Shown piece after piece: positions 18,201-36,559 of a stretch of DNA of 44,896 bases. Made by a program: the position numbers and the translations under genes. Positions within the stretch are counted from its first letter, which is position 1. Each line of letters starts with the position of its first letter. The notes under the pieces were generated by a model. The model was not told where the DNA came from. It saw nothing but the letters and a program-made list of their open reading frames with translations, and searched no databases. Origin of the DNA: an uncultured Anaerolineales bacterium (GTDB lineage: Bacteria > Chloroflexota > Anaerolineae > B4-G1); NCBI GenBank assembly GCA_964412395.1, contig CAYPOY010000002.1, positions 1-44,896 on the forward strand, given 5' to 3'.

Positions 18201-18955
18201 CGCTCTCCAGTCTCGACCACCGCCTTCTCTTCCGGCTCTCGCTCCAGCGGGTCCCGCGTGGGCGCCTCGGACGGGCGGTATCTCAGCAACCGCCGCCGCG
18301 CCGCCTCGGGCACCTCCAGCGCGATCCAGCCCGGCTCCTGGACGTTCCACAGCCGCTCGAAGCGGAGGGCGACCTGGGACAGCCACGGCCGGCTGCCGTC
18401 CCAGGAGCGAAAGACCATAAACTGTTCATAGTTGCGCTGCCAGCCGGCGGCCGATTCGTTGACGCTGCCGCTGAAGGCAATTTGATCACCGTAGCGGTCA
18501 GTGAAGAGACCCTCTTTGGGGTGGTAGTAATCCTGGGCCTGGGATGCGGGAAGGGGGCGTCCGTCCAGCCCTTTGGGGAGCACGACGCGGATTTGGAGGC
18601 GGCCGGCGGCGACCATCCAGGCCAGCACCTCCAGGCGGCGGCGCATGACTTCTTCTGCTGGCTCGCTAAGGGCGGCGACCAGCCGCCCGGCCACGACGTC
18701 GTCCAGCGCCTGCCCGCGCTCGATGGCGCGAACGTCGGTCTCGCTCAGTTGGGCGCCGACGAGGAGGCGCATGCTGCCGCCGTGGGCGACGAGCCGAGCC
18801 ACGCCGGCGGCCGCCACGGCCAGGGCGCTGCTGGCGAAGAAGCCGGCCGTGCGGTCGTAGCGGATACTGCACGAGAGGGCCGGGATGTAGAAGTCGTGCA
18901 GCCGGTCGTCGGCCGGGCCGTAGGAGATCTGGAAGTCGTGGTCGCGGAGTCTCAT
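15224..18955 (-). CDS. PLD (HKD)-nuclease-fused SNF2/SWI2-type helicase
   Basis: HKD-like 'YHPKEGLFTD…SGSVNES'. Helicase motifs 'DEVGLGKT', 'DEAH', 'TATP', 'SEGLNLQ' and 'EQRIGRIDR'. ATG abuts the upstream stop codon. Confidence 0.9.
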   Translation of the reverse strand: MRLRDHDFQISYGPADDRLHDFYIPALSCSIRYDRTAGFFASSALAVAAAGVARLVAHGGSMRLLVGAQLSETDVRAIERGQALDDVVAGRLVAALSEPAEEVMRRRLEVLAWMVAAGRLQIRVVLPKGLDGRPLPASQAQDYYHPKEGLFTDRYGDQIAFSGSVNESAAGWQRNYEQFMVFRSWDGSRPWLSQVALRFERLWNVQEPGWIALEVPEAARRRLLRYRPSEAPTRDPLEREPEEKAVVETGERFVTTDELQRERVLFQFLRDAPRLLNARWLGAATSALTPWPHQACIASTIVARFPERFLLCDEVGLGKTIEAGLVLRQLILSGRVRRCLILAPKSVCRQWQEELYEKFALNVLFFDGHTFRDVFGQEHTPDVPNPWDAEDIFIASSQLAKRRERQPDLLAARRWDLVIVDEAHHARRKDFLTNRYRPNRLLELLTGLKDRTQGLLLMTATPMQVHPLEVWDLLRVLGLGGRWGANDSNFLRFFRELRRPDDDADWDFVFGMVRDFLETGGELDPAFARQAEAQLGLVDWQRLKLLASTQGTSLKNLSPQTCSLAVEMARRHTPLRRYLFRSTRRLLREYARQGIIKATIPRRDPRPVWISMRDEEQNLYRRIEEYISQFYRKYEEERKGLGFVMTVYRRRLTSSFYAVRRSLERRLDFLRGRAVAGTPAGLDEDDLEQEDLSADVTELLDEEGRSRFRDEIEYVEDFLAELGRLSGNDSKVERLLADLDEIFRQRDTVIIFTQYTDTMDFLREQLRQVYGGQVACYSGRGGEVWNGIAWVTTTKEAIKNAFQQGEAIKILLGTEAASEGLNLQTCGVLINYDMPWNPMRVEQRIGRIDRIGQVHGEVWIRHYFYEDTVEARVYQALEDRIGWFEEIVGELQPILAWMGRAIQTVAMTPGAERERVLARELDQLREASDARQVEGFDLDRYLVAGEPLLEAASPVTLDDLKRVLTLTQSPSSAGRFQPHPEFERAYWLRTGEDDIAVTFDAALFDAHPNTLRLLTYGNELLTGLLRAVPEPAVDSAGPILRCQAEGPLPLCAYYALDTGSRPQRIERVTDLEVAYAAKPSVAWSEEAIAAARDDFEREHAALLQQQMQVVAVRQRAERLALEEQARQTLLRAALVELALGQQPELFAEEALPVAFTEEAVTGLRRHGYPFAPLLRLVNVDGLRPGPTDPFYAAVQGQSREALRRRFVVLRDKATRLVGLLTSTPDQEEPSQGPPDVVVQASLL

Positions 18956-19737
18956 TTAGACGCCGCCCGCCTGGATGTCCAAACCTAACTGCTGCATAGT
19001 CACCTCCGGCTCCTCCCCCACCGGCACCGTCAAATCCTCGAAGAATGCCAGGCGCATGCGGTCCAGCACTTCCGCCTCGGGGCGGATGAACTTTCCCTTG
19101 ACCTGGGTGCGGGGGATGGCGTTAAGCATTGCCTGCAGGCAAGCCTTGAACGTGCCGTCGGTCAGCAGGCCGGTGCGCTTGAGGAAGGCCTCACACGCCA
19201 GCGCACCGTCTTCTTCGTAGATGAGCATCCCAGCGTGGGCGGCGTCCAGGAGTGTGTCGAAGACGTCCGCCTCGGGGTCGGCCAAGCCCTTGCGGCGGCG
19301 CTGCTTGGGCCCTTGCAGGACGACGAAACTACCCTTCTTGCTGATGACCCGCTTGCGCCGCACCAGGTCCGCCTCGACGTCCAGCCCCAGCGCCAGCGCT
19401 AACTTGCGCGCCTCGTCGGCGGGGAACTGTTCGGCCTTGAAGGCATCCCAGGCCATCAGGTACCAGTCAGTGACGGGATCGAACTGGATCTCGCGGCCCA
19501 GCAGGAGGCCGCGCTTGCGCAGCGCGATGACCTCCTCGCGGGCCAAGTCGAGCGCGGTTTCGGGGCGCAATGGTTTGGGTTGGCCCGTCAGCTCGTCCAC
19601 CTCGAGATGACGGAGAGGACGGGGCCGAAGGTGCTGATGTAGAGGTCTACGCCGCCGACCCCCTGGGCGGCGAACTGGGCCGCCTTCTCCCGCGCCACCC
19701 GCCGCACCCGTGGCTGCAGATCATCCCACCAGACGGA

Positions 19738-19806
19738 GCCCTCGCCCCCCGTCCCCCTCTCCCAAGTTTGGGAGAGGGGGTGCCCCGCAGGGGTGGGGGT
19801 GAGGGC
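19738..19806. repeat. In-frame palindromic REP-like insertion #1 in the methylase (ALTPTPAGHPLSQTWERGTGGEG)
   Basis: Outer stem GCCCTCGCCCCC…GGGGGTGAGGGC with inner stem CCCCCTCTCCCAA/TTGGGAGAGGGGG. Confidence 0.8.
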
Positions 19807-20072
19807 TCTCTTGCGGCAGACGAGCAGGATGGTGCTGGCGGCGGCGTTCTTCTTCGCCTGGTGCAGCGAGTGCTCGGATTCGGTGTGGACGGGCCAGGAG
19901 GCTTTGATGGTGAAACCAGCACCGATGAGGGCCGCCCCCAGCGTGTCCCAGGCCTCCACCCGCTTGTGGGTGAACATGACAGTGAGGATGCCGTCGTCGC
20001 GCAGGGTGCGGTGCATCTCGCGGAAGCAGGCGGCCATCTTGCGCTCGTAGTCCTTTTCGGCCAGGGCCTTTA

Positions 20073-20116
20073 CCCCTCTCCCCCGGCCCCTCTCCCCTCC
20101 AGGGGAGAGGGGAGAG
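20073..20116. repeat. In-frame palindromic REP-like insertion #2 in the methylase (SPLSPGGERGRGRG)
   Basis: CCCCTCTCCCCT-CC-AGGGGAGAGGGG hairpin with a leading CCCCTCTCCCCCGG. Confidence 0.75.
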
Positions 20117-21042
20117 AAGCGGGCCGGATTGGCCACCGCCTCGTCGTCCTTGTTGGTCAGTGCATCGCGGAAGAAGTTGGGGTACAGGTGGCCCACGCTG
20201 CGTTTGAGCCAGACGTAGAAAAAGTCGCTCAGTTCGGCGTACATGACGTTGTCGTAGTAGGGTGGGTCCACGCAGATGAGGTGGACGGAGCTGCTCTCGA
20301 CCTGGCTGAGGTCGGTGGCCGAACCTTGCCAGACTTGCAGGCGTTCGACGGGCGACCCGCCGTCGCTGCCCCACAGGGGAAGTTGAGCTGAAACGGCTAA
20401 TTTGGCCAGGCCTTTGTAGGCATCAAGGACTTGACTAATTGCCCAAGGCAGTAAGTTAGCAGCAGAGTCGAATTCTGCGTGCACCCAGGTCATGGCGAAA
20501 TTGTGCTTGGTGAACGCATGGGCCACTACCTGCCGTGATGGGTGCCATGCTGCTTGTACACAATTGTAGTCTGTTGCCTTATCCAACGCTATGCCCAAGT
20601 ATGTCTGCACCGCTGCCGCCTGTTCCTCGTCCATCTCCCGCCGCATTTCCGAGCCCACCTCCCGCAGCGTCTCCAGGAAGGTGAGCAAGGAGAGGAGTTG
20701 GCGGGGGGAGAAGAAGTCATCCCATCGGTATATGCCGTAGAGACGGTGACCACGGTCGTAGTTAGACACTTCGGAAATCGCCTCGGTCGGCACCAGCCCG
20801 GCCGCCTCCCAGCGGGGCAGGTTGCGGGCCAGGACGGCCTCGGCGCGGCGGACGGCGGCCAGGTCTTCCTCCGCCGGGGGGCGGAAGTCGAAACCACCGG
20901 GGCGCTTGACGGCCACGGCGTAGAGCATCTGCCCCATGCGGCCGGCCTGCGCCTCCCGCTTGATGTAGTCGCCGCCAATCGGCTCGCCGGTCCAGGGTGA
21001 GCGTCCCACCCCCCGCCGGACCGTGCCCTCGTCCGGGTCAAA

Positions 21043-21093
21043 CCCCTCCCCTGTCTCCCCTCCCCTCGTAGGGGAGGGGCCGGGGGTGGGGTG
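21043..21093. repeat. In-frame palindromic REP-like insertion #3 in the methylase (HPTPGPSPTRGGETGEG)
   Basis: CCCCTCCCCT-CGT-AGGGGAGGGG hairpin followed by CCGGGGGTGGGG. Confidence 0.75.
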
Positions 21094-21948
21094 CACAATC
21101 TCGAAGCGGGGCTCGTCCCAGGCGGGGTTGGTCAGGAGGCGCACGGCTATGGGCTCGCCTTTCTTGCTCAGCCACCAGTTGGGGGAGAGGGGCACCGGCT
21201 TGCCGGTAGTGGGGCAGGCCACCGTGCGCGCCCAGAGGTAGGCGAAGATGCTCTCGCCGGGTTGGCGGGGGAAAAAGTCGGCCAGCCGCTTCTCCACCCG
21301 CTCGGCCCACACGTCGCCCCACCTGCGGATGTCCTCGGCCAGGGTCGGGCCGAAGCGGGCCGGGTACTCCAGCGTGGCTTTGAGGATGACCGATGCGACC
21401 GGGTTCAGTTCACCGGCCAGAGCGGTGAAGCCGTAGCGCAGTGCTTCGAAGGGGATGGAGCCGCCGCCGGCCATGGGGTCCATCACCGTGATCTCGCGGG
21501 TGCCCCAGGTCTGCTCCAGCAGGTCGAGCATCGTCTCCAGGTCTTCCTGGGAGGGGTTGACGGTGAAGGCACGCGGAGCACCACCGTAGGGATGCTCCTT
21601 GAGTTTGATGCCTCGCTGCTTGGCCCACTGGATGAGTTTGCGGCCGGCCACCGGGTCGCCCAGGATGCCCAGGAAGCGCAGGAACCAGGCGCGGTAGGTC
21701 TCCTCGGTGGGGAACCTGGCCTGCAGGGAGGCCGCCCAGTTGGGGGACCACTGCGGAAGGAGGCTGGCCAGGATGGCGGCACGGCTGACCGTCAGCGGCC
21801 GGCGCGCCCACCAGACGTGCAGAAAGTACAGCGGTGGCAAGGCGCTGCTGGCGCCGCGTTCGCGCAGGCTCTCCGCGCCGACGGTCTCGAAGGGGAGCCA
21901 GGATTCGATGAGGGTGGGGGGGGAAGTCGAGGTCATCTGTGCCTCCGT

Positions 21949-22776
21949 TTAGTCGGATGGTTGGAGTGTCGCAAGTAGAACTGGCGTCACCGGGTCATAG
22001 GCGAGGGAGACTTGGTACAGTGCCAATAAGCCATCCCCTCGCGCCTCAGTGTAGATCAACGTTCTGTCGTCTAGCCAGCGCGCACTCGCAACCACGTTGC
22101 CGTTTCTTGTCAGCCGCCGTACCAGTGGTCTATCAGTCCGGGCCACAAACAGCTCCACTGCATTTCCTTTTTCATCCCGTTGCTCACCCAAGAAGGCTAA
22201 CCACTCACTGTCTGCCGCCCATTGGGGCGGCACCTGGAGATGAATCTGAAAGACCGTTCCCAATTGGCTGTCTCCGCTGTGGTAAGTGAGATCAAGCACA
22301 TGCCCATCCGGCTCCAACACACGCAGGCTCCGTTCATCGTTCGGCGTGACCGCAAAGAAGGCCAGCCGCTCGTCTATCGGCGAGGGCACTGCCCACCATT
22401 CATCGTAATCGTCCGATTGGGTCAGGTTGACGGGCGTTGCCTCGGGTACGGTTACGTCCAGACTGAACACGTCGCTCGTATTGCCGCCGGAGGATTGAGC
22501 GAAATAGACCGTGCTTGATTGCTGCGTTGAGGCGAATATCTCAAACGGAATCTGTGTGGGGTTGGTGTCAGTGACGAGGGCCTCAGCCGGGCTGTCCGAC
22601 TTGCGCCCGAACAGCGGCTTTGACACGAACGTCAACCCCATGCAGAGTAGTATGATGAATAGGACAGCCAAGGGTAACGTGTACGAGTGCAAGCCCCACC
22701 AAACCTTGTCGAAAACGCCGATCATTGGCGTTGCGGCAGGCTTCCGGGGGCTATCGGATGGTTGCTGGGAGCTCAT
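21949..22776 (-). CDS. Membrane-anchored TolB-like (partial beta-propeller) protein
   Basis: One N-terminal TM, then PD40-like segments 'PVNLTQSDD…VPSPIDERLAF', 'PQWAADSEWLAF' and 'RRLT…ARWLDDRTLIY'. Confidence 0.7.
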   Translation of the reverse strand: MSSQQPSDSPRKPAATPMIGVFDKVWWGLHSYTLPLAVLFIILLCMGLTFVSKPLFGRKSDSPAEALVTDTNPTQIPFEIFASTQQSSTVYFAQSSGGNTSDVFSLDVTVPEATPVNLTQSDDYDEWWAVPSPIDERLAFFAVTPNDERSLRVLEPDGHVLDLTYHSGDSQLGTVFQIHLQVPPQWAADSEWLAFLGEQRDEKGNAVELFVARTDRPLVRRLTRNGNVVASARWLDDRTLIYTEARGDGLLALYQVSLAYDPVTPVLLATLQPSD

Positions 22777-22806
22777 CCATCATTTCCTGAACTGCCGGCG
22801 GTAGAC

Positions 22807-23145
22807 CTAATCAAGTCCTTGGCTCTCGACAATCCGCATTTTCAGACTCTCTATCGTACTCACTACCTGCTGGCGGCCGGGGACATCAGGCGATATCTGA
22901 CCCACAGTTACGGTTAGACCATTGAGTATCGTCTGGGCTTGGTTGTAGTCAGCCTGATTAACCAGATTTCTCGCCTGCTCCAAATGCATCCCTATCTGTA
23001 TTCCTGTCTCAAAGCCAGGCAGGTATCGAGTAGTCTCCTCGTCTCCGCTATAAGCCGGTACACCAGGCAGTTGACCAGACATCATGAAAACCGTAGGCAC
23101 ACCCACGCTCAGGATTTTTTGAAGCCAGCGGATGCCCCCTTTCAT
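22807..23145 (-). CDS. Small hypothetical, possibly exported protein
   Basis: RBS AAAGGAGGTG upstream and an N-terminal hydrophobic stretch. Fits the operon spacing. Confidence 0.55.
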   Translation of the reverse strand: MKGGIRWLQKILSVGVPTVFMMSGQLPGVPAYSGDEETTRYLPGFETGIQIGMHLEQARNLVNQADYNQAQTILNGLTVTVGQISPDVPGRQQVVSTIESLKMRIVESQGLD

Positions 23146-23172
23146 CGCACACCTCCTTTGGTTACTTGTTTG

Positions 23173-24264
23173 TCACGACTCACTGATCGTGGCATTTACC
23201 ACTGTGGATTCTGGTTGAGTCTTTTCTTTGTCAGTTTCCTCTGATTTGTAGCTAAAGATCAAATCTCCCTGGATACGGTCGTGCTCTCTAAAGAAGGCAG
23301 ATGTTTTTTTCCACAGAATACGCTCCTTTGTATACGTTTTGGGGCGTTTGAGCCCCAGTCTCTCGCGAAGGTGCCCCCTGTAGAGCACAAATGCGGTACG
23401 AATGGTGAAGCCCCAACTAAGCGCTCCTTGGATAGATAACAGATAGAAACCAAAGGCTACGGTTGTCGCTAGTCCTAGTTGGAAGAGGACCGGCCCCCAT
23501 TGAAATCCATAGAGTAGCACTTCCACGTATGCCAACTCTACGCCGAAGAGCAGCGTGAGAACCGTCATATTCAGCAAAAAGTCAAAGGTGGCCTTCTCTT
23601 TTTCGATAAAGGGAGCGTAGCCCTCCTGTGTTAGGACGGGTGTCAGATATGGCCAGAGAGTCACCGAATCCATCTCATATAAGTGCCCAGAGTACTCTTC
23701 AGCCGCTGCAATCACGTTACCCAACCGAGTGGGTAACGTGCGCCAGGTTTGATGTTGCGGATGCATCCAGGCCAGTTCAGCAGCTAGCAAGTTCCGTTCA
23801 AGTTCGCACCGCTGTCGTTCAACCTTAGCTCGTTCCCTGTCTTGAGGGGAAGTGGGATTCTCTTCCCGTTTTCGCCACATCTGGATATCGGCATTGAGCA
23901 GCTTTACCTTGGATTGCAGGTACTCGATTCGTCGCAGGTTCGACAGGCGCAAACGCCTTCCCAATGAGAAAGCAAGTAGCGGATATCCCTCGAATAGCCG
24001 AATGATCGAGATATTCAACACAGCCAGAGAGTATCCGATCAGCAAAACGGCAACAACGGCGAGACTGCCCCAGAAGAAAGATGAACTGTAACACTGCAAA
24101 GTGTCATAGACTTCAGTTCCTCTAAGCTGAGGCAGCACGAAAATGGCGTTCAGCGTCACAAACACAGCAGCTGGCAAGATGGCCGACAACCGCAGTGCCT
24201 GGAGCAACAGTGCTAACAGATCTGAAATCGCTTTGACAAATGTTGTCACAGATTTGACCCCCAC
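23173..24264 (-). CDS. Hypothetical multi-pass membrane protein with a central coiled coil
   Basis: Two N-terminal and two C-terminal TM helices flank a coiled coil and the segment 'LPTRLGNVIAAAEEY…YEMDSVTLWPYL'. Composition is more AT-rich than the core operon. Confidence 0.75.
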   Translation of the reverse strand: MGVKSVTTFVKAISDLLALLLQALRLSAILPAAVFVTLNAIFVLPQLRGTEVYDTLQCYSSSFFWGSLAVVAVLLIGYSLAVLNISIIRLFEGYPLLAFSLGRRLRLSNLRRIEYLQSKVKLLNADIQMWRKREENPTSPQDRERAKVERQRCELERNLLAAELAWMHPQHQTWRTLPTRLGNVIAAAEEYSGHLYEMDSVTLWPYLTPVLTQEGYAPFIEKEKATFDFLLNMTVLTLLFGVELAYVEVLLYGFQWGPVLFQLGLATTVAFGFYLLSIQGALSWGFTIRTAFVLYRGHLRERLGLKRPKTYTKERILWKKTSAFFREHDRIQGDLIFSYKSEETDKEKTQPESTVVNATISES

Positions 24265-24273
24265 ATTCTACCC

Positions 24274-24352
24274 TTATTCCCCAGCCAACAGAATCCGCAG
24301 CGCCCGCTGGGCGTTAGCGGCGCTCGCCCCGGCGGTGCATTTGCTGAACCAG
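24274..24352 (-). repeat. Orphan diverged duplicate of the last 25 codons + stop of the ASCH-fusion gene (WFSKCTAGASAANAQRALRILLAGE*)
   Basis: Direct repeat of 28003-28081 with 20/25 identical aa. 21 nt are identical (GCGGTGCATTTGCTGAACCAG at 24332-24352 and 28061-28081). Confidence 0.9.
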
Positions 24353-24366
24353 ACGTGTCAAACTGC

Positions 24367-24846
24367 TCAATCTCGCAGTCTCATGAGCTGGAGCAGCCGC
24401 TGGTCTGAAGTGACAAGATCGCCCTCCTCCCGGCTGAAGGCGGTCGCTGCGTGAACGGCATCGGGCCATTCTATTGGCTGCACACTGCCGTCAGGCATCG
24501 GGACCTCCGGCGGCACCTGACCGAACACCGGGATCAAATCCTCATCCATGGGTTCGACTGAGAACCAATCCGGGGGCTCCTGGAGGAGAGCGGCCAGTTG
24601 ATGCGGCTGAAAGCGTCCCGCCACAATCTCGTCCCATTTGTGCGCCAACTCAACAAAGGCCATCGCTGAGGCCGCCACTATGTAGCGTCCATTTCCATGC
24701 ACAATGCGGTTGATCTGCCGGGCGGTTTCTGGTGGAAGAAAGCGGCTGGTCTGGAATTGTGGTGTGATGCGATCCTCAGCCTGAAAGTATTGGGCCAACA
24801 CATCGGCCAGTGCGCCCGTGTCCAACACCAGGTCAGTCATTGGCAC
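24367..24846 (-). CDS. PIN-domain (VapC-like) ribonuclease
   Basis: The PIN acidic tetrad pattern is present: 'LVLDTGAL', 'SAMAFVEL', 'PDAVHAATA' and 'LVTSDQRL'. Confidence 0.8.
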   Translation of the reverse strand: MPMTDLVLDTGALADVLAQYFQAEDRITPQFQTSRFLPPETARQINRIVHGNGRYIVAASAMAFVELAHKWDEIVAGRFQPHQLAALLQEPPDWFSVEPMDEDLIPVFGQVPPEVPMPDGSVQPIEWPDAVHAATAFSREEGDLVTSDQRLLQLMRLRD

Positions 24847-25261
24847 ACACCTCTCCGTACCAGGCTTCCATCTCGGCGTAGAGTTCGTCCTCCCACCAGG
24901 TCTGCTCTGATGGACGCAGGGTTAAACGCCGTACTGCCTGATCAGGGGGCAACCTCTGTCCGCACACCGCCGGCCACAGACCTGTCACGACGTGCGAGTC
25001 GGAGCGCGCAAAGAGCGCCCGGTTCAGACAATCTACGTCTAACGGAGCTATGTAGAGGCATCCCATTTCCGTTACCGTCTGCCAGCCATTCAGAAACCTG
25101 GCCCAATCCAGACGGCGCCTGCGCTTGACGATGGAAGCGGCTACCTGGAGTGGCTCCATCACGGTGCACAAGAGTAACGCCCCTGCACGCTCGTAAACCT
25201 TTGAATTCTGCACCAGACGTTCTACGTCAGCATGGGAAAGCAGTCTGGTTCTCATGAGCAT
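24833..25261 (-). CDS. Small hypothetical protein (possible partner or antitoxin of the PIN protein)
   Basis: ATG at 25261 overlaps the ATPase TAA (TAATG coupling). The acidic C-terminus 'WWEDELYAEMEAWYGE' overlaps the PIN start. Confidence 0.6.
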   Translation of the reverse strand: MLMRTRLLSHADVERLVQNSKVYERAGALLLCTVMEPLQVAASIVKRRRRLDWARFLNGWQTVTEMGCLYIAPLDVDCLNRALFARSDSHVVTGLWPAVCGQRLPPDQAVRRLTLRPSEQTWWEDELYAEMEAWYGEVCAND

Positions 25262-26649
25262 TATCCCTCCCCCAGCAAATCTGTCCGAACGGGAGGCAGT
25301 GGTTCCAGATCGTATTCTTCCGCAGGCTCGCTGGGGATCTCGGACTCGTAAATGGCGCGCACCTGATCGGCGTGAATCGTCTCCCATCCCTCCCGCACAG
25401 CCCGTTCCAGCACCAGCCGCAGCAGCGTCAGCATGGGGCCAGGTACACCGCCGGAGAGCCGTAGGGCTTCAACCACTGCCTCCTGGTCGAAGGGATGCAA
25501 TTGCCCTCGTTGGTCAGGCGGGGTGCGAAAGTAATCCAGGTAGGCCAATACAAGGGGGACGGCTGTTGCCTCGGCGTCCAACGGGCGGAAGTAAATGGTG
25601 TATGCCTGGGCCGCCCCACCGCTGACGGCGCACACCCGGTCCAGACCGGCGGCCTTCCAGTGGGGTGTCCAGAGTTCCTGTATATAGGGGTGAATGGTCA
25701 ATAGCAGACCGTAGAAGTGGGTATAGACGCTCTGAAAAGGGCCGTCTATGAAAAAGCGGCGCAGGTCGTCTACGAACGCACGCCGTTCCTGGCGGTTCTG
25801 GGGCACGACGATCTTTTCTACCTCATCCACTAACAACAACGTCTGGTAGATTTCAGCCGCCCGGAAGAGCCGCACCAGATCGTCAAAGACCAAAAAGTGT
25901 CCCTCCCGTCGCCAGCGGTAATCACTCTGTCGGGTGAGGAATTGCCGCTCCCAAACATCAGAGGCGTACCCATCGCGGGCCAGCGAACGGGCAATCTTTT
26001 CGCGCACACCGGCCCGGATCAAAACGCGCTCCACATCTGGATCTAGCATAAACATTGTGTTGATACCCTTCTCCTGTAGCCATTGGTTATCTCCCAGGGT
26101 AGGGCCTGGATCCCTCGGGTCAATCTGGGCCAGTATTTCCTCCTGAATCTGTTCAGAGAAGGCGCGCAACCGCCAGATGGCCCAGGCGATACAGTTTCCT
26201 GCGTTGAGTGCCTGGGCGATGAGCCGGGTAAACTGCCAGAACTTGCGTGTGCGCCCACCGCCTTCGGGTATCAGATGAGCCGCCAGCAGCATATAAGCCC
26301 CACCGGTCAGTTGGTCTCCCAAATCGGCCATAATCCGTCGGCGCTGATAATTGAGAAAGGCTGTTTTGCCGATCCCTCGCCCACGCCGGGTGGCATAATC
26401 CATCAATAACGCAATCGGGCGCGGTTCTGGCTGCCCTGGGCGAGGAATCAACAAACGTTCAAACTGTGCCTCTTCGGTCGCTCGCAAATCAGCGCGATAG
26501 ATTTCGCCGTTGCGCCGGGGGTCGCTACTGTCAGGAACGATGGTGGGCGAATCGGGAAAGGGGTTCTGGGTAAGCCCAAATCGAGCATACGGATTCTCCG
26601 CAGCAGGCATTGGCTGGGGACGGCGTAGAAGCGGGTTGCTGATGGTCAC
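25261..26649 (-). CDS. P-loop ATPase (AAA+/STAND-like)
   Basis: 'YARFGLTQNPFP' N-terminus, Walker A 'RGRGIGKT', Walker B 'LLLVDEVE' and C-terminal 'HPFDQEAV…SGGVPG' lid. Overlaps the upstream gene (GTGA). Confidence 0.85.
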   Translation of the reverse strand: MTISNPLLRRPQPMPAAENPYARFGLTQNPFPDSPTIVPDSSDPRRNGEIYRADLRATEEAQFERLLIPRPGQPEPRPIALLMDYATRRGRGIGKTAFLNYQRRRIMADLGDQLTGGAYMLLAAHLIPEGGGRTRKFWQFTRLIAQALNAGNCIAWAIWRLRAFSEQIQEEILAQIDPRDPGPTLGDNQWLQEKGINTMFMLDPDVERVLIRAGVREKIARSLARDGYASDVWERQFLTRQSDYRWRREGHFLVFDDLVRLFRAAEIYQTLLLVDEVEKIVVPQNRQERRAFVDDLRRFFIDGPFQSVYTHFYGLLLTIHPYIQELWTPHWKAAGLDRVCAVSGGAAQAYTIYFRPLDAEATAVPLVLAYLDYFRTPPDQRGQLHPFDQEAVVEALRLSGGVPGPMLTLLRLVLERAVREGWETIHADQVRAIYESEIPSEPAEEYDLEPLPPVRTDLLGEG

Positions 26650-28010
26650 GGTAGACTCCTTTCCCTGCCCTGCGGCATGCGGGCCAGGGCGATCAGGGTA
26701 TGCGGAACGCCTTCCAGGTAGACCGGCCGGCGAAGTTGACCTGCACCACTGCTCTGTTCTTCGCGGATATCTGTCTCGACTGCGACAGACCAGGGGAAGT
26801 CGCGGGCTGGCAACTCGCGCACAATCTGTTCCAGAAAATAGTCAAAGCAGAGAGAACTCAGCCGCAACTGACGGCACACCTCATCACGCACATCCAACAG
26901 CGAAACATATAGAGTGCCGATGTGTGTCGCATAGTGCCGATGCACTGAAATTAATGTGCTCAGAAACGAATCTCGAACGGCTGTCCACGCCGGCCGGTGT
27001 AACCAGAGTGGGTCACCGCCGGGATGTTGAATCCCATTTAGCCTCTCAAATCGTTCCGTCGGAGCCGAAGGGCGAAAGGCGCTGGTGGGGAACAGCAAGC
27101 GACCAGCCACCTGGGGATGCCAGTCAGTATAGAAGATCAGTTCCAGTGCTTCCAGCCGGGGACACCACCCCATAAAAGTGCGCAGGTAGATGGGCGGGCG
27201 GCTCCCTGAGAAGTCCGGCTGGCTGGAGCCATAGGGCACTCTGTCAAACAGCAATCCCACGCTGGCCTCGCGCATAGCCAGTGTCAGACGTGTCCGGGGA
27301 CTGTATGAGGCGGGGCTCTGTTTACGGCGGCTACGGGGCTTGAGGGCGCTCAACCGCTCCCAGGCTCGCTGCACGGCAGATAGCCAGTCTTCGTCGCAGA
27401 TGGGAAAGGCATTAAGGCTGGCATCTCTCGCCCGTTGCGCTGCCGCCAGCGTTTGTTCGCGCAATGCATCGTCCCAGTGGTTGTTATCCCAACTTCGCGA
27501 CGATGGTCGCCAGTCAGCAAGAGGTGCAGGCAGAATGATCTCTCCTTGTCCCTCTGGGTTGATCTGCCATAGGCGGGCAATGAACCAACCGGGGATGACG
27601 TAAACTTGCTGCATCTTAGCAGTCAACAAGCGACGAAAGGCACGGGCATCCTGGCGCGAGAAGGTCAGCGCCCGTTGGCCGTCGGGTGTGATCACGTGCG
27701 GGGCAGTACTTAGCCCTTCTGTGGTTCCCCGGCGCGGCTGTAGCCAGTCAAAGTAACGCAGTTCGCGCATCAGCCGCTCCACGGTACGCGGACTTTGGCG
27801 CAGCACCAGACGCATCTTTTGCAGGCGCTGTCCTAACTCACGTTGGAGCAAGGATACGGTCACCGCCCCGTGTTCTATAGCCAAAGCCAGGGCCTCAGCG
27901 TACAGAGTTAAGTCAGTGAACAGGCCAACTTCACGGCTGCGCGGAGCAGGCCACTCTACAACCATCTGGTTACCCCTTGAGGTTGGCGAAAGGCGGGAAT
28001 CTTTACTCAT
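26646..28010 (-). CDS. Hypothetical protein, possibly with winged-helix domains
   Basis: 454-aa ORF coupled to both neighbours (ATGAGTAA overlap). wHTH-like segments 'RTVERLMRELRYFDWL…HVITPDG' and 'YVSLLDVRDEVCRQLRLS…FD'. Confidence 0.7.
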   Translation of the reverse strand: MSKDSRLSPTSRGNQMVVEWPAPRSREVGLFTDLTLYAEALALAIEHGAVTVSLLQRELGQRLQKMRLVLRQSPRTVERLMRELRYFDWLQPRRGTTEGLSTAPHVITPDGQRALTFSRQDARAFRRLLTAKMQQVYVIPGWFIARLWQINPEGQGEIILPAPLADWRPSSRSWDNNHWDDALREQTLAAAQRARDASLNAFPICDEDWLSAVQRAWERLSALKPRSRRKQSPASYSPRTRLTLAMREASVGLLFDRVPYGSSQPDFSGSRPPIYLRTFMGWCPRLEALELIFYTDWHPQVAGRLLFPTSAFRPSAPTERFERLNGIQHPGGDPLWLHRPAWTAVRDSFLSTLISVHRHYATHIGTLYVSLLDVRDEVCRQLRLSSLCFDYFLEQIVRELPARDFPWSVAVETDIREEQSSGAGQLRRPVYLEGVPHTLIALARMPQGRERSLP

Positions 28011-28899
28011 CGCTCAACAAAATCCGTAGCGCCTTTTGCGCCTGGGACGCGCTCGCTCCAGCGGTGCATTTGCTGAACCAGTAGTACGCCTCCTCGGACG
28101 GCATGGCCCGCAATGCGCCGGAGATAGCCTCAATTCGGTCCATTCGGCTCAGCGGCTTGACCGCCAGGAAGAGAAGCCCTAAGCGCAGGCCGGTCTCCTC
28201 GTCCAGTCGGAAGGGCTTTTTCCGCTCCCGTGAGAGGTCCGTGGCCCTGTAGCCCGCCTTGCGCAGCGCTTCCAGCACGTGGTCGGCCACAGCCCGTAGC
28301 GGGTCGCCGGCGAGCGACACCAACTGCAGGGGCTTTGTTGGGGGAGCATTAGACTCCCGCCCGGCGTTGGCGGCCACTGGCCACTGGTAGAGCGCCAGGC
28401 CGTAGTCGCCGCCACCGTGGGGCGCCACACGCAGTTCGAAGGGCTTTTCGGGGTCGTAGACCGGTGCATCCGGCCGCACGGTGTAGGTTACCCTGGGCGG
28501 CGGTAGTGCTTCCCCCGCTATCACCTCATCGGGCACGTTGAACAGGCTCATACGGCCGCGTATGGAGATCGGCTGGGGCAACCGTTGGGGGTGCTCCAGC
28601 CGCCAACCAAACATCGGGCCGGGAAAGTCGCGCTGGGACAGGTGCTGATCGCGCAGAGTCTCCCACATCGAGTCGTCCAGCGCCAAAACGTCTACCAGTT
28701 CCACCGTGCCGACCAGCGCGCCGCGTACCACTCTTGCCGGATCCAGACCATAAGCCAGACATGCCTCTTCCCGCACCGTCTGACTGGCGTGGATGGCAAT
28801 GCGGCCGCGGTGATTCGTCTTCCAGGTGCGCAACTCGATGGTCTTGCGCCCCCGGAGGATGAGTTCAGCCCAGGGTTGGCGGATGCTGAGTGCTTTCAC
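28003..28899 (-). CDS. ASCH domain fused to the small helical accessory domain typical of DUF499/DUF1156 operons
   Basis: ASCH signature 'MKALSIRQPWAELILRGRKTIELRTW…RGRIAIHAS…GALVGTVEL…WRLEHP…RG'. C-terminal domain 'LDEETGLRLGLLFLAVKP…EEAYYWFSK'. Confidence 0.8.
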   Translation of the reverse strand: MKALSIRQPWAELILRGRKTIELRTWKTNHRGRIAIHASQTVREEACLAYGLDPARVVRGALVGTVELVDVLALDDSMWETLRDQHLSQRDFPGPMFGWRLEHPQRLPQPISIRGRMSLFNVPDEVIAGEALPPPRVTYTVRPDAPVYDPEKPFELRVAPHGGGDYGLALYQWPVAANAGRESNAPPTKPLQLVSLAGDPLRAVADHVLEALRKAGYRATDLSRERKKPFRLDEETGLRLGLLFLAVKPLSRMDRIEAISGALRAMPSEEAYYWFSKCTAGASASQAQKALRILLSDE

Positions 28900-31800
28900 G
28901 ATTCCTGTGCCTCAAACGGTTCGGCGTCCACCACCATGCGCCCAAAGCCCAGCGTGGTGAACACCTCGTGGATGGTCTGGAACTGGTCCGAGCCCACGGC
29001 CAGCCCGTCGGGGAAATCGGCCCGCAGCGTGGTCCTGACCAGCAGTTTGCTGGCCTCCTGGCCGAAGGGGTCTGTGACCTGCTTCAACCGTTTGTAGCGG
29101 TCCCAGCCACCGGTGAAGGTCACGCTCACAGACTCTTCCTCGCCAAACTCGGCGTTGAAGGATTGCTCGACGTGAAACCGGCCCTTGCCTAGTTGCGGGA
29201 TGGCCAGCCCCATAGCGCGGGCCTCGGTTGCGCCTTCCCTCCCCTGGCCCTCAATGCGGGCGAACAGCTGGCGCAGGCTGCTCACCCCCTGGTCGGCGCA
29301 TTGGTCGAGCAATCTCTGAAAGGCTTGGGCCGGCGCGCCCTCCGCGTGCAGTCGAATTGGTGGCGTGATGTCGGGGGCCTCCCGGCCGCAGATGCACTGG
29401 CTGATGGGGCGCTGGCAGACGGGGCAGATGCGTTCACGGCCTTCCTCTCTTTCGGCCTCCTCACCTTTGATCTTCAAACCGACCCGTCTGGCCTCCTCAG
29501 GTGTGTACAAGAAGGCTTCCTCGCTGATCTGGACGGCCGGCACTGGTGAGGATGCACCGTAGCCCACCTCTCCGACGCTGTCATAGTAGACCCATACGCC
29601 CTGGGAGATGCCGTTGCGGATGGTCTTCTTCAGTTGATTCAGGTCCAGCAGAATGCGCAGCCCTAAGCGGCGGGCGAAGGCGCGGCGCAGGTCCTCGGTG
29701 GAGATAGTCACCTGACCCGTGTCCCAGGCTTTGGCCCTGACGAAGGCGGCCGGCAGGGTTGGGTCGTCGGCCGTCAGAACCTTCTGCAACTGCTTCAACA
29801 CCCGCAGCACCACGTTGGTCTGGTCCTGGTTCACCTCGCCCTGGTCCTGAGGCGGCAGGGTCTCCCGGACCAGGTTGCTGTACCGCTGCGGGGCGTCGGC
29901 GCTGGGGTAGTAGAGATACTTGTAGGCTTTGGTGATGGCAACCCGCACGTCCAACTCGGCTGCCTCGGCCATCTTCTTCAGCCGCTTGCGCTGCTCCTGG
30001 TGAAACTCGCGCAACCGCTCGGCGTCCCCAACGATGCGGCCAATGGCCAGGTAGCGCTGGGCCACCCGTACCACGTTTTCCACCTGGTCCTCGTCCGCCA
30101 CCAGGAAGAGCACGTTGTTCTTGTAGGTGCGGTAGCCCTCCAGCGATCCGGCGTGGTCGAAGATGCGCTGCACCAGGTCGGGCGGGGCAGCGGCGCCGGC
30201 CGTGCTCGTCGCTGCGTCGTAGTGCACGATGGCCAGTTTTGGTTTCTCGGCGTCGTCATCCACGTCGCCCGCCTCGCTGGGAAAGTAGACCGGCTTCAGG
30301 TAACCCGTCTTCCACACCTGGCGGATGCGGCGGTCCAGTTCCGCCTTGGCCTTCACCCGACCGACCATCCCCATCTCGTCGGCGATGATTTTGTTCAGCG
30401 AAGGCTCGGTTTTGAAGCGGTAGCGACGGCTGTCCCAGTCGAGGAACCAGCCGCTCTCCACCAGCCGCTCGGCAGCCTTGGTCACCATGGCCGGGTCGTC
30501 GTCCGGTGTCAGCACGGCCAGGGATAGGTCGGCTGGATCCACCCCCGTGGCTATCCCCTGGGTCAGGCTATGGAGGAAGGCGGTCGTGGCCACGCGGCGG
30601 GCGTAAGGGGGCTTCCCCGCCTCGAGCCACGGGGTGTCAATGACCTGCGCGTGAGCCTGGGAGCCGGCGAGTGGGCTGACGATGTCGGCCTCAATGACCT
30701 GCTTGAAGGCCGGGCGGTCCAGACGGCTGGTCAGGTCGCTGGCGATGCCCTCCACCCCCAGGTCGAGGTGAAACGGGTGGATCAGGTAGGTATCAGGAGG
30801 GCGGGTCTCCCACAGGCGGCGGACGACCATCGCCAGAAGGCGCAACGCGCCCCGCGTCTTCTGGAAGTTGGGGATGGTTGAGGTCTTGCGGTTCAGCGTG
30901 GTTAGCAACTCGGGATGGAAGGGGTAGTCCCCGACCATCTCCTCGGCGTACTCAGCACGCAACGCCCGCTGGGGCAGGTTGGCCCCTTGATCAATGACGC
31001 GCCGGTAGTAGTCCGCATAAGCCTTGACGGTCTTGCGGGCTCTGTCTCGATGAGTCGTCTTGAACAGGCGATGTGTCACAATGGCCGCGATCTCCGCCTC
31101 GCCCGTCGGTGTGATGACCCGCTCCTGGCGCGCCGATAATCGCCTGGCCTCGGCCAGTTCCTGGCGCAGTTCCTCCGTCTCCTTGCCGAAGGCGTCGCGG
31201 GAGTCGGCCAGTGTCAGCACCACCACCGTCCGCTCCTTGCTGGCGGCGAATTCGAACAGCGACATGAGGAAGGCCACCGTCTGCTCGGCCAGGTCGGATT
31301 TCCCGGTTGCGGTCGGCACGGTCTTGGCGGCGCGGAGGTGGCGGGCCACCTCGTCCAGCATGATGAGCGTCGGGTCATCTCCGACCAGTTTCTCCAGCAA
31401 GCCAGTGCCCGGCGCGGAGCGGTCATGGTCGCTGCCCGCGGTGTGGGCGTACCCCGCAGCGCCGCCCAGTTGATACGCCAGTTCGCCCCACAGGGTATAG
31501 GTGGTCACATCTCCGTGGTCGAGGCCGTCGCGGGGCTGCAGGTCTGAGCCGACGATGCCGACCACGCGCACCGCGCCACTGGCCGGGATCAGCGGAGCAT
31601 CAACAAAGGATGGCCCGGGCACATACCCCTTGGCCGCGTGGTAGAGAGCGATCAGGTTGTGGGTCTTGCCACCTCCGAAGGCCGTCTCCAGGCGAATGAT
31701 GGCGTTATTGGCTGGCTTCGCGCCCGTCAGCCGGCCCAGCGCCTCGTCGAGCAGGAGTTTCAGCCCTTCGGTGGGGTAAGTATTGTCACAGAACGTGGCG

Positions 31801-31928
31801 GGGTCCTGGTAGACGGGATCAGCCTTGCCCTCTATGACATCTCTCAGGCGGGCGGCGAAGATTTCTTCCCGCAGTTCGCCCTTCAGGACTTCGGATCGCG
31901 GTTCACAACTGTCGAAGATTGTCTTCAC
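28896..31928 (-). CDS. DUF499-family AAA+ ATPase
   Basis: 'NTYPTEGL', Walker A 'LETAFGGGKTHNLIALYH', Walker B 'LIMLDEV', 'YPFHPEL' and 'FQKTRGALRLL'. Small Cys cluster CPVC…CIC near the C-terminus. RBS AGGAG. Confidence 0.9.
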   Translation of the reverse strand: MKTIFDSCEPRSEVLKGELREEIFAARLRDVIEGKADPVYQDPATFCDNTYPTEGLKLLLDEALGRLTGAKPANNAIIRLETAFGGGKTHNLIALYHAAKGYVPGPSFVDAPLIPASGAVRVVGIVGSDLQPRDGLDHGDVTTYTLWGELAYQLGGAAGYAHTAGSDHDRSAPGTGLLEKLVGDDPTLIMLDEVARHLRAAKTVPTATGKSDLAEQTVAFLMSLFEFAASKERTVVVLTLADSRDAFGKETEELRQELAEARRLSARQERVITPTGEAEIAAIVTHRLFKTTHRDRARKTVKAYADYYRRVIDQGANLPQRALRAEYAEEMVGDYPFHPELLTTLNRKTSTIPNFQKTRGALRLLAMVVRRLWETRPPDTYLIHPFHLDLGVEGIASDLTSRLDRPAFKQVIEADIVSPLAGSQAHAQVIDTPWLEAGKPPYARRVATTAFLHSLTQGIATGVDPADLSLAVLTPDDDPAMVTKAAERLVESGWFLDWDSRRYRFKTEPSLNKIIADEMGMVGRVKAKAELDRRIRQVWKTGYLKPVYFPSEAGDVDDDAEKPKLAIVHYDAATSTAGAAAPPDLVQRIFDHAGSLEGYRTYKNNVLFLVADEDQVENVVRVAQRYLAIGRIVGDAERLREFHQEQRKRLKKMAEAAELDVRVAITKAYKYLYYPSADAPQRYSNLVRETLPPQDQGEVNQDQTNVVLRVLKQLQKVLTADDPTLPAAFVRAKAWDTGQVTISTEDLRRAFARRLGLRILLDLNQLKKTIRNGISQGVWVYYDSVGEVGYGASSPVPAVQISEEAFLYTPEEARRVGLKIKGEEAEREEGRERICPVCQRPISQCICGREAPDITPPIRLHAEGAPAQAFQRLLDQCADQGVSSLRQLFARIEGQGREGATEARAMGLAIPQLGKGRFHVEQSFNAEFGEEESVSVTFTGGWDRYKRLKQVTDPFGQEASKLLVRTTLRADFPDGLAVGSDQFQTIHEVFTTLGFGRMVVDAEPFEAQES

Positions 31929-31993
31929 GGGGATCTCCTCCTAACCGCACAGATCGCAACCTTTCGAGGTGTTCTTGGGCCTCTACCGCGGTA

Positions 31994-32022
31994 AGTATAG
32001 TTCAACCCTGGGCATAAGTCAA
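31994..32022 (-). promoter_or_regulatory. Sigma70-type promoter for the DUF499 operon (TTGACT-N17-TATACT)
   Basis: On the minus strand, -35 TTGACT is at 32022-32017 and -10 TATACT at 31999-31994, with an exact 17-nt spacer, ~65 bp upstream of the DUF499 start. Confidence 0.75.
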
Positions 32023-32059
32023 CAGCCGGTGGACGTCAGGGGTTCGTAGGGCGGCCGCG

Positions 32060-32425
32060 ATGAAGCCCGCCACCGTCAACCGCGAACTGGCGTCTCTTTC
32101 GGTCCTCTACCGCCGGGCGGGGGAGATGGGGCAGGTGGAGCGCGATCCCACCCGGTACGGTCAACGGGGTGAAGCAGCAGCCCACGGCGCCGAAGGCCCT
32201 GAGCAAGCAGGCCCTGAACCGCATTCTGCGGGAGGCGCGCAAGTGGAGCCGAAGGGATACCGCACTTCTGGAGTTCCTGGCTGCGACCGGGCTGCGGGCC
32301 TCAGAGGTGGCCAGTCTGATAATAGGTGACCTGACTTCCTGGGCCACAGCCGGTTGGATACGACGGTGCGGTACAGCCGGCCGAGCGAGGAGGATCTGGC
32401 GCAGGCGGCGGAGCGGATGGGGTAG
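32060..32425 (+). pseudogene. Tyrosine recombinase (XerC/D-like) remnant in three fragments
   Basis: 'KPATVNRELASL…DP' then a frameshift to 'PKALS…RRDTALLEFLAATGLRASEVASL…GDL'. An unlisted fragment at 32333-32425 reads 'DFLGHSRLDTTVRYSRPSEEDL…*'. The central HxxR region is missing. Confidence 0.85.
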
Positions 32426-32556
32426 CAGAGAGAAGATGCAATTCACTTCCGAACTAGCCACATCGGCACTCCAGCACATCATCGGAGCGGAGTCGCCCGT
32501 GAATGTTCACGGGCAACTCCAATGCAAGTAGTAACTGTCGGTGTCCCATCCTCTCT

Positions 32557-33378: not shown

Positions 33379-33666
33379 CTTGCCACCTCCTTTCGCGCCG
33401 GGAGATATGGGCTACGATGCCACTGCGGTGCCCGGTTCACTCCTATTATAAGGGAATAGCACTTAGATGGCGCTGGCGATTGTTCGTCAGTTTGAGGTCA
33501 GAGAGGCGATCTACGGGGGGTAAGAACTTACAAGTGGCCTATGATTTGCTGACGCAGAGTGAGGCGAATCGGCAACTCGGATGACGCGCCAGAGTGGGGA
33601 TATGTCAGTTTATGACTGTCTGGTGACGAAAGCCGCTCTGTACTGGAGGGGCAAGGGGGAGCCGAG

Positions 33667-35679: not shown

Positions 35680-35686
35680 AAAGCTA

Positions 35687-36538: not shown

Positions 36539-36559
36539 GACAATGCCTCCTTGGTGTGA

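Follow-up and report, generated by a model that had tools for sequence, protein, structure and literature searches.

The 3' end of a conserved gene occurs twice in the operon described here, once as the end of the working gene and once as an orphan behind four further genes. We consider it probable that this duplication records the swapping of accessory modules within an anti-phage operon, a four-gene cassette having arrived with a foreign gene tail and displaced the native one. The stretch of DNA analysed (the window) comprises 44,896 nucleotides (nt) of contig CAYPOY010000002.1, from the metagenome-assembled genome (MAG) GCA_964412395.1 of an uncultured Anaerolineales bacterium. Judged from its gene content, the operon is an Hma, or Type-2 BREX-related, anti-phage system, in the order DUF499 ATPase, ASCH-DUF7680 fusion gene, slot, DUF1156 methylase and PLD-SNF2 helicase; its genes are tightly packed, with intergenic gaps of -14 to +37 nt. 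The slot is the stretch from the stop codon of the ASCH-DUF7680 gene to the start of the methylase gene. In the window it holds the cassette (u454, u462, u142 and u159), the orphan tail and a second module of three genes (u363, u112 and u275). All coordinates are window positions, and all operon and slot genes lie on the minus strand.

The ASCH-DUF7680 fusion gene (28003..28899; 298 amino acids (aa); Pfam DUF7680, 3.5e-41, and ASCH, 8.3e-09) is the second conserved gene of the operon, and homologues hold the same operon position in 24 other loci. Its C-terminal end reads WFSKCTAGASASQAQKALRILLSDE* (asterisks mark stop codons), with ...SQAQKALRILLSDE as the working-tail allele. This working tail (28003..28081) recurs as an orphan at 24274..24352, 12 nt past the stop codon of u159 and 24 nt ahead of the likely start of u363. 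Frame translation of 24274-24354 gives ...RLRD*AV*HVWFSKCTAGASAANAQRALRILLAGE*; the frame in which u159 ends resumes as the orphan after two stops. Working tail and orphan have 20 of 25 residues in common, and a repeat search pairs 24286-24352 with 28015-28081 (67 nt, 81% identity, spacing 3729), with a perfect 21-nt stretch at the 5' end of the copies (24332-24352 = 28061-28081). The similarity ends abruptly at a tryptophan (W) codon, and there is none upstream of it. A profile built from 17 full-length homologues matches the orphan with an i-E of 1.1e-10, at model positions 269-294 only, and a six-frame search of the whole 5.3-Mb assembly found exactly two places, the gene and the orphan (orphan E 3.1e-6). 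The recurrence of the tail had been proposed in a preliminary description of this DNA, and translation, repeat search, profile and assembly search all bear it out; the alignment likewise reproduces the 20 common residues and the perfect 21-nt core described there. The count of four genes given in the same description holds between the two copies, but seven open reading frames (ORFs) lie between the ASCH-DUF7680 gene and the methylase gene, three of them past the orphan.

The arrangement was checked against assemblies made with another assembler. One Logan contig from run X1 (4010 nt) spans 21683-25692 with 0 differences and bridges u159, the orphan and u363; a further X1 contig covers 26724-29500 without a difference, and one from X2 covers 27030-28158. 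Because the X1 contigs span it without difference, the arrangement cannot be put down to the MAG assembler; X1, which like X2 comes from a salt marsh, is possibly the sample that yielded the MAG itself, and thus provides an independent assembler but not an independent sample. The joint from 24352 to 28082, which loss of the cassette between the repeats would leave, was absent from the Logan contigs of X1-X4 over 21500-29500; such contigs drop rare variants, so this absence is uninformative on excision. The only joint detected (21821 to 24289, side 25 nt, 3 mismatches, in a 2787-nt contig) is in our reading no deletion product but another organism's operon with a tail near the methylase head.

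Comparison with relatives indicates which of the two tails is native. The 75 coding nucleotides of the tail were divided into a 33-nt 5' part and a 42-nt 3' part and compared with ten relatives, here called clade A. The two window copies match each other at 30/33 nt in the 5' part vs 26/42 nt in the 3' part (Fisher p 0.0066). The orphan's 3' part agrees with eight clade-A relatives at 33-38/42 nt (28 and 30 in L033 and L035) and, as protein, is the clade motif ANAQRALRILLAGE; over its full length the orphan is identical at 24/25 aa to L028 and L030. The 3' part of the working tail agrees with clade A at 22-29/42 nt and finds its best match in another clade (L017, 31/42); its 5' part is clade-A-like (24-31/33). 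By this comparison the working gene is a mosaic, its first 11 tail codons clade-like and its last 14 of a foreign allele, and the orphan is of the native type. Because the orphan matches the clade consensus and the last 14 codons of the working tail do not, the old tail appears to have been displaced and the foreign one to have come with the cassette, as the preliminary description had supposed. That description had also placed the recombination at the WFSKCT codons. An exchange within the conserved tail stands, but the switch lies ~11 codons past WFSKC, outside the 21-nt core. Across all 25 loci few parts of the protein are as conserved as the tail, and in both the window and a second genome, G002, the identity switch falls inside it, just past EEAYYWFSKC, its most conserved stretch.

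Base composition also sets the parts of the operon apart. The GC content of third codon positions (GC3) is 0.77-0.87 in the core genes (0.83 in the DUF499 gene), lower in the cassette (0.63-0.66) and in the u363 trio (0.54-0.67), and 0.78 in the orphan, as in the core genes. This difference among core genes, cassette and trio supports separate origins.

The content of the slot varies widely among relatives. The comparison set comprised 24 further loci with a DUF7680-type gene, ten from related genomes and 14 of 15 from a species collection (L041, with ASCH only, was left out); they come mostly from MAGs of Anaerolineae and other Chloroflexota, with some from Planctomycetota and Acidobacteriota. 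Both slot borders were present on the DNA in 19 loci, the window included, and among these the slot spans 14 bp to 6.1 kb. It is empty (14-163 bp) in five loci, holds one small gene (350-688 bp) in four, measures 1.7-2.6 kb in nine and reaches 6.1 kb in one, the window. At least 11 different gene sets occur among the 19 loci, including DarT with a macro-domain protein (L037), Schlafen/AlbA_2-HATPase_c_4 with HicB (L018), an HD protein (L039) and a CAP protein (L023). The five closest relatives (ASCH-DUF7680 75-79%, DUF499 ~80% identical) have none of the window's seven slot genes. The site in which the u363 module directly follows the working tail, with no cassette between them, was found in G009/L024, G050/L025 and L034; it is the predicted 'empty' form of the window's slot, as the orphan has the same neighbour in the window. 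This variability agrees with the earlier suggestion that the slot is a hotspot of cassette accretion. PADLOC gave nothing on the slot genes of L017, L019 and L021. The commonest single occupant of the slot is a gene of ~170-190 aa (PRFGxLxPxYxFxLNP...) with no Pfam or PADLOC family (L021, L026, L028, L017, L022 and L027), which may be a semi-core component of the clade's operons. Three operons of the set, in a Pirellulales MAG (L037), a Vicinamibacterales genome (L040) and G027 (L026), carry many frameshifts or large deletions; the slot of L037 still holds an intact-looking DarT-macro pair.

Scars similar to that in the window are present in 4 of the 25 loci (window, G002, G015 and L030), and the edges of the duplicated pieces vary by locus. 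The order in G002/L019 is ASCH-DUF7680 gene, a 399-aa gene, an orphan tail of at least 45 codons and the u363 module; the orphan there shows a TGG-to-TAG stop and a 10-nt deletion and has lost its stop codon. Its 5' 75 nt match the genome's own gene at 70/75 (best other 64/75), and its 3' part matches that gene at 31/53 vs 42/53 for L024, where a native tail stands ahead of the u363 module. The two genomes differ in the left edge of the duplication: it lies at W273 in the window and in G002 at least 20 codons upstream of that position, so the site is not fixed. G015/L017 carries an orphan methylase head (MTRPNVLLESWLPFDAIGAE..., i-E 3.4e-6) and past it a tail remnant of ~10 codons (...ARKALWILLVDG*), then a three-gene cassette. 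A cassette of the L017 type is also found in L030, with a like remnant (...DALRILLADA*) right behind the locus's own working stop codon, and the regions upstream of the common cassette align (L017 15880-16120, L030 10860-11080), including a TGGTATAAT box. This L017/L030 cassette, which may bring its own promoter, encodes proteins of 279/290, 226 and 189 aa for which no family was found.

In the searches across the set, such scars were confined to this slot. Over all six frames of 513,454 bases the tail motif gave 28 matches, namely 25 gene ends and three extra places: the window orphan, L017 15976-16041 and L030 10906-10971. By a profile scan with five core genes over 26 sources, true orphans occur only in the window, L019 and L017, and the same scan found no orphans of DUF499, methylase C-terminus or helicase outside frankly decayed loci. 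The further tail duplicates that the preliminary description had predicted for relatives were thus found, in G002/L019, G015/L017 and L030. In a phylum-wide sample, 35/401 genomes matched at E<=0.01 and the sole tail-only match was the window's, in a search that would miss remnants of ~10 codons.

From these observations we infer an order of arrival and a kind of intermediate. The slot would be a place where accessory modules are swapped among Hma-type operons, the swap being anchored in the two conserved gene ends that border it, the EEAYYWFSKC... tail and the LLESWLPFDAIGAE... methylase head. In its first state in this lineage, the slot would have held the u363-u112-u275 membrane module directly behind the native tail. 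Later, DNA from another such operon would have brought the four-gene module together with the last ~14 codons of its ASCH-DUF7680 gene. Homologous exchange, resolved just past the WFSKCTAGASA codons, would have kept the gene whole, and the other join, 12 nt past the u159 stop, would have been non-homologous; the native tail, from the W codon on, would thereby have been left as a non-coding orphan ahead of u363. The intermediate may have been a circle carrying tail and cassette, which by one crossover gives the duplication directly, or the route may have been a one-ended homologous exchange with an illegitimate second join, as has been proposed for T6SS (type VI secretion system) effector-immunity arrays and Rhs loci (Kirchberger et al., 2017).

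Several points weigh against this reconstruction. No donor allele was found: the only other operon with the cassette after the ASCH-DUF7680 gene, G008/L022, has a different tail (27/42 nt against the 3' part of the working tail) and has no orphan, an absence that would follow if most exchanges take the ordinary, scarless route of double homologous recombination. In its classical form, homology-facilitated illegitimate recombination usually removes DNA of the recipient and does not duplicate it; a circle would explain the duplication, and none was seen in the Logan contigs of X1-X4, which drop rare variants. The identity of the 5' parts (30/33) is no higher than between clade species (orphan vs clade A 26-31/33), so these parts cannot show an origin from a single allele. 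All three 5' differences are at synonymous third positions and the orphan is undecayed, which leaves two options, a recent event or a history in which each copy evolved in a working gene of its own lineage. MAG contigs make up most of the loci, and those of kin are not independent. The operon may itself be decaying, as its methylase gene is split, and the defence role assigned to the cassette draws on context and folds, with no PADLOC match and with sub-threshold PIN and BrxC_BrxD scores.

If the order of arrival were reversed, the cassette would be the resident and u363-u112-u275 would have arrived later with the last 26 codons of a donor gene as 5' flank, by a homologous right-hand exchange in the methylase and an illegitimate left-hand join after u159. 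We regard this history as unlikely, but it has a footing in other loci: cassettes do travel with a 5' tail remnant, as the same remnant and TGGTATAAT stand ahead of the 279/290-aa gene in L017 and L030, the tail precedes the u363 module in 5/5 loci, and L034 shows that a clade-A-type tail can adjoin a u363-like gene. The undecayed orphan would also fit a recent import. However, this order makes the working tail the native one, although at 5 positions its last 14 codons depart from a motif near-invariant in 9/10 clade-A relatives. The TAGASA sequence common to both copies is found among those relatives in 1/10 only (L030). Finally, the G002 orphan is that genome's own allele in its 5' part (70/75) and the trio-linked allele in its 3' part only, which needs a crossover inside the tail that the reversed order does not provide.

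Direct repeats flanking the insert, a perfect 21-nt stretch at one end and a restored 3' end of the target gene, as left by integrative islands, could instead mark the tail as the attachment site of a site-specific mobile element, with the 21-nt core as the crossover and the recombinase elsewhere or lost. We think this very unlikely. A Pfam integrase, transposase or recombinase domain was found in no scanned ORF of the cassette or window, the scan covering every cassette and slot gene and the large ORFs of the window, in agreement with the preliminary description, which had seen no integrase in the cassette. The edges of the duplications differ (W273 in the window, at least 20 codons upstream in G002, the methylase head in G015), and the cassette occurs without a tail in G008, in a Type I restriction-modification (R-M) locus, by PglZ and by another DUF499 gene. 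Moreover, the 21-nt core is the family's most conserved coding stretch and shows synonymous variation among relatives.

It is less plausible still that the orphan is the last remnant of a decayed second ASCH-DUF7680 paralogue or of a tandem second Hma operon. Heavily decayed operons of this kind do exist (L026, L037 and L040), but the other 272 codons have left no trace in any frame, the profile matching at positions 269-294 only, and the space upstream of the orphan is filled by a conserved, intact PIN-like gene that ends 12 nt before it. A profile scan found no second copy of any other core gene in the window, and the absence of a decayed full-length paralogue, on which the preliminary description had staked its reading, is thereby upheld. 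That two strains with different slots were joined at the common 21-mer during assembly is scarcely credible: the MAG has 529 contigs and 5.9% contamination, and the samples also contain related organisms that have the conserved core in common with it (X3 and X4 show loose ends at 28064 and 28095), but such a join would place the ASCH body, not u159, upstream of the orphan, the second assembler's 4010-nt contig crosses the orphan with 0 differences, and an analogous orphan is found in the unrelated genome G002.

Beyond the displacement of the native tail by a cassette-borne one, which remains our preferred account of the window, a more general view is possible but doubtful at present: the conserved ends bordering the Hma slot may act as integrase-free docking sequences, with modules circulating as units that include a piece of the upstream gene's tail. 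The suggestion of tail-carrying units comes from the cassette shared by G015 and L030, which visibly carries a tail piece. Host homologous recombination in the EEAYYWFSKC block would then regenerate the gene each time and stack older modules downstream. If true, this would amount to integron-like shuffling of immune cassettes with no dedicated recombinase, and stacked orphan tails would be both a fossil record and a substrate for later loss or exchange.

The cassette also occurs outside Hma-type operons. The order u454-u462-u142-u159 is kept in L022, L053, L054, L056 and L088, the order being shown only where the locus is long enough (L055 and L057 are cut by contig ends). The cassette lies behind the ASCH-DUF7680 gene in the window and in G008/L022; in L053/L057 it sits in a Type I R-M locus, between HsdR (EcoEI_R_C) with an RHH-nucleotidyltransferase gene and HsdM; in L056 it follows an N6_N4 methylase and a PglZ protein; and in L054 it stands in front of another DUF499 gene. 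In G679/L088 it is apparently alone, flanked by HhH-GPD, beta-helix and caspase-like genes, and its u454 is broken. It is thus found co-oriented between the genes of a known multi-gene defence system and also outside that host system. No conserved non-coding flank could be defined across these contexts. As its gene order is kept from one context to another, the cassette is, by this comparison, evidently a discrete unit. A related arrangement was noticed in L049 (G342, 3552-16728), where a 1963-aa Eco57I/MmeI-type methylase has a u454-like domain fused at its C-terminus and is followed by a u462-like NTPase gene, a 333-aa gene without assignment, an S24-peptidase-like gene and a PLD-SNF2 helicase gene. 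The locus may represent a methylase-helicase system of its own, with the u454/u462 pair as core and not accessory genes, and the fusion to a methylase links the pair to methylase-based systems.

The first cassette gene, u454 (26646..28010), encodes an N-terminal winged helix and a large domain without a match. Its probable true start is Met16 (27965), which has AAGGGG 7 nt upstream and lies 37 nt past the ASCH stop; homologues align only from WPxPRSREV onward. An idea that tied the Asp codon of ...LLSDE* to an overlapping u454 ATG start was dropped, as the homologues and the good ribosome-binding site favour Met16. At E<=0.001 u454 has 188 homologues, and 0/120 of those listed carry a Pfam domain. 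Its structural model has a predicted local distance difference test (pLDDT) score of 89.9, with a MarR/PadR-like winged helix at residues 17-106 that aligns with MarR 2qww_A (VIA Z 11.0, root-mean-square deviation 2.4, 77 residues). Foldseek gave no match for u454 at E<=0.001, and matches to the N-terminal domain prevailed in the wide VIA search; no new fold is claimed.

The second gene, u462 (25261..26649), is predicted from its sequence to encode a BrxC/BrxD-like P-loop NTPase, with the Walker A motif GRGIGKT and the hhhhDE motif LLLVDEVE. Its Atlas neighbours carry BrxC_BrxD (in 10-74% of members), AAA_22 and KAP_NTPase; u462 itself has no match to Pfam BrxC_BrxD, and its distant relative in L049 scores 20.8 bits vs a cut-off of 22.2. 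Searches of plasmid and phage collections with u462 by tblastn gave no match in either. The third gene, u142 (24833..25261), encodes a small protein for which no Pfam family was found; its ORF runs to 25387 and homologues align from Met43. The four genes are translationally coupled, as the preliminary description had it, with overlaps of 4 nt (u454/u462), 1 nt (u462/u142) and 14 nt (u142/u159).

The last gene, u159 (24367..24846), is predicted to encode a PIN-like (VapC-like) protein, on the grounds of a weak Pfam PIN match (E 0.011, 16.8 bits, under the 23.6 cut-off) and its predicted fold. PF01850 is assigned in 4/29 of its homologues (precomputed), and the acidic residues D7, E64, D127 and D146 are invariant in 26 sequences. 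The model (pLDDT 94.7) has a PIN fold by Foldseek, in which the top 14 rows are VapC, FitB or PAE0151 (probability 0.95-1.00, template modelling (TM) score 0.42-0.62); the best E is 1.7e-3 (probability 1.00, TM 0.53/0.60) and none reaches 0.001. The C-terminus of u159 is full length compared with homologues. Two proteins, P0002 and P0031, are homologues of cassette proteins (u159/u454) at 89-90% identity.

PADLOC-DB 2.0.0 returned 0 families for each of the four cassette proteins at E<=0.01, and PADLOC and NCBIfam gave nothing useful on the seven slot genes. On embedding and predicted folds, the cassette is most likely a defence module, accessory or backup, transcribed from the promoter of the operon, by a logic of 'guilt by embedding' that makes it a candidate for such a system. 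The winged-helix protein would bind DNA, the BrxC/D-like NTPase would be the sensor or switch, and the PIN-like nuclease with its small partner would be the effector. Methylation-based defence loci of four kinds contain or adjoin the module, and PADLOC has no model for it; for both reasons it is a good candidate for a new system of accessory or backup defence.

A preprint (Payne et al., 2024; bioRxiv 10.1101/2024.01.29.577857) has already described the hotspot, and reports embedded genes in 931/1,485 Hma systems (62.7%) and 376 distinct cassettes. Among the embedded sets it describes are ATPase and PIN pairs, and embedding is reported there also for Type I R-M and BREX. As far as its accessible portions go, the preprint offers the idea of a 'genomic sink' and no insertion mechanism; it treats the causes and the manner of embedding as open questions and its significance as a matter for later study. 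As in the window, the host system consists of helicase, methylase and DUF499 ATPase, and the extra genes lie between hma genes in the same orientation. By contrast, at most three embedded genes were allowed between hma genes in that study and the window has seven, and the embedded ATPases described there are of ABC type whereas u462 looks BrxC/D-like. The discussion of the preprint also mentions the PrrC anticodon nuclease inside the EcoprrI hsd locus, thought to be a backup effector (Payne et al., 2024). Like PrrC, the four-gene module is found within a restriction locus that works by methylation, in L053/L057 between hsdR and hsdM; unlike PrrC, it consists of different proteins and shows no sign of being held inactive by, or of sensing, the host system.

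A later study has renamed Hma the Type-2 DUF499-centred BREX-Related system (Nucleic Acids Res 2026, PMC12839542). It describes a small fourth gene, DUF3780, sometimes fused to ASCH/PUA, and auxiliary nucleases (PIN, Schlafen, HEPN and OLD-ABC pairs) inside core loci. The window operon resembles that system in its DUF499 ATPase, DUF1156 N6-methylase and HKD/PLD-helicase, and it has an ASCH fusion at the position of the small fourth gene. For that gene the names differ, DUF3780 in the paper and Pfam DUF7680 in the window, the two being compared by name only. The words 'recombination' and 'cassette' have 0 occurrences each in the main text of PMC12839542.

A closer parallel to the proposed displacement is described for Rhs, CdiA and type VI secretion system (T6SS) effector-immunity loci, in which C-terminal displacement leaves orphan arrays (Kirchberger et al., 2017, Sci Rep; PMC5361080). 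Scarless homologous replacement is thought there to be commoner than the scar-leaving kind, with homology-facilitated illegitimate recombination as a proposed route. As in those arrays, so far as the article describes them, a conserved stretch of the upstream gene would anchor incoming DNA in the window, the new module would take the upstream place, and the old 3' piece with its linked genes would be shifted downstream and kept. Two features of C-terminal displacement are present, with an orphan 3' fragment that has its conserved piece downstream (window and G002) and an exchange point inside a conserved block. In contrast to the arrays, where the displaced piece is a variable toxin domain with an immunity gene and the exchange changes protein function (Kirchberger et al., 2017), the tail in the window is conserved, the same protein is regenerated and what is added is a set of separate genes downstream.

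Integrative islands restore the 3' terminus of the gene they enter, be it a tRNA, tmRNA or protein gene, and imperfect direct repeats flank the insert. The window is like them in its direct repeats of a target 3' end and in an incoming copy that keeps the gene whole; unlike them, it has no integrase and no fixed crossover, and its insert is co-oriented and tightly packed in an operon. A literature search turned up no paper that connects orphaned gene ends with embedding in defence operons. Four things look new, namely the scars, the mosaic tail, displacement logic at work in an immune operon and the four-gene module, and the supplementary tables of both papers on Hma-type systems may list the module. 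Orphan tails and the orphan methylase head are physical scars of insertion events, and they suggest that divergent copies of the same operon recombine, with conserved gene ends as the anchor. The logic of Rhs, contact-dependent inhibition and T6SS effector arrays is now seen in an immune operon. We would predict an excess of scars at slot borders in the ~1,500 Hma systems now known, and that stacked modules are ordered by age, with the newest adjoining the working gene.

The module past the orphan begins with u363 (23173..24264), a membrane protein gene with ~4 hydrophobic spans by hydropathy, which directly follows an ASCH-DUF7680 tail in each of the five loci holding it (window, L019, L024, L025 and L034). 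Its Atlas neighbours are unnamed clusters only. The second gene, u112 (22807..23145), has ORFs of similar size at the same position in L019 and L024 and no Pfam family, and the third, u275 (21949..22776), has an N-terminal hydrophobic span by hydropathy and homologues in L019, L024 and L025.

The core genes of the host operon begin with the DUF499 AAA+ ATPase gene, HmaC (28896..31928; Pfam DUF499, 2.6e-38; PADLOC HmaC, 5.7e-106), which NCBIfam DUF499_antiphage matches at 7.5e-77, under that model's cut-off. A promoter-like site, TTGACT-17-TATACT (31994..32022; 10/12 matches), lies ~65 nt upstream and is a candidate operon promoter; such sites number 2 in 18800-33500 vs a shuffle mean of 2.7, which makes the evidence weak. 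Within the slot, neither a promoter nor a terminator could be recognised with any conviction. The C-terminal domain of the ASCH fusion is Pfam DUF7680 and has no match to DUF3780 even at E 5, although the position of the gene is that expected for a DUF3780 gene.

The slot's downstream border is the DUF1156 N6-adenine methylase gene, HmaB (19588..21936; N-terminal 782 aa; Pfam DUF1156, 2.2e-14; PADLOC HmaB, 8.3e-80), whose C-terminal part forms a separate overlapping ORF of 214 aa (18956..19600). An alignment with four relatives, whose methylase is a single ORF of ~960-1080 aa, shows that the window lacks 25 nt (...SVIS|EVDE..., 19588-19620), and the catalytic part ends early. Because the gene is split by this deletion, methylase activity is in doubt. 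The last core gene encodes the PLD-SNF2 helicase (HmaA/BrxH-like; 15224..18955), with Pfam SNF2-rel_dom (4.9e-18) and Helicase_C (9.1e-18), a weak PLDc_2 match (19.3 bits vs a cut-off of 27), and the PADLOC matches BrxHI/II (9.8e-80), PLD_Helicase (6.3e-74) and HmaA (3.1e-64).

A palindrome, CCCCTCTCCC-loop-GGGAGAGGGG, occurs in 7 copies in the assembly vs 0 in a reversed control. Two copies, at 19754-19779 and 20087-20112, stand in frame within the methylase gene as the small insertions PLSPGGERGRGRG and PLSQTWERGTGGEG, which L028, L031 and L033 do not have; the palindrome looks like a dispersed hairpin repeat tolerated within coding loops.

Around the operon, the region directly upstream (33667-36976, minus strand) encodes a protein with TCAD9, receiver and OmpR-type DNA-binding domains, a receiver protein with a cyanobacterial TRADD-N-associated 2-TM region and a lone receiver, and looks like a conflict-system cluster. 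A 110-nt repeat (35333-35442 / 36192-36301, 77%) links two receiver genes. On the other side, at 10612-14051 on the plus strand, a TPR protein adjoins a caspase-like Peptidase_C14 protein; a caspase-like gene is also found near the four-gene module in G679 (L088 17245-19746). Between the operon and the response-regulator cluster, a 273-aa coiled-coil ORF (32557-33378) contains a 21-nt periodic repeat in 6 copies (33041-33177).

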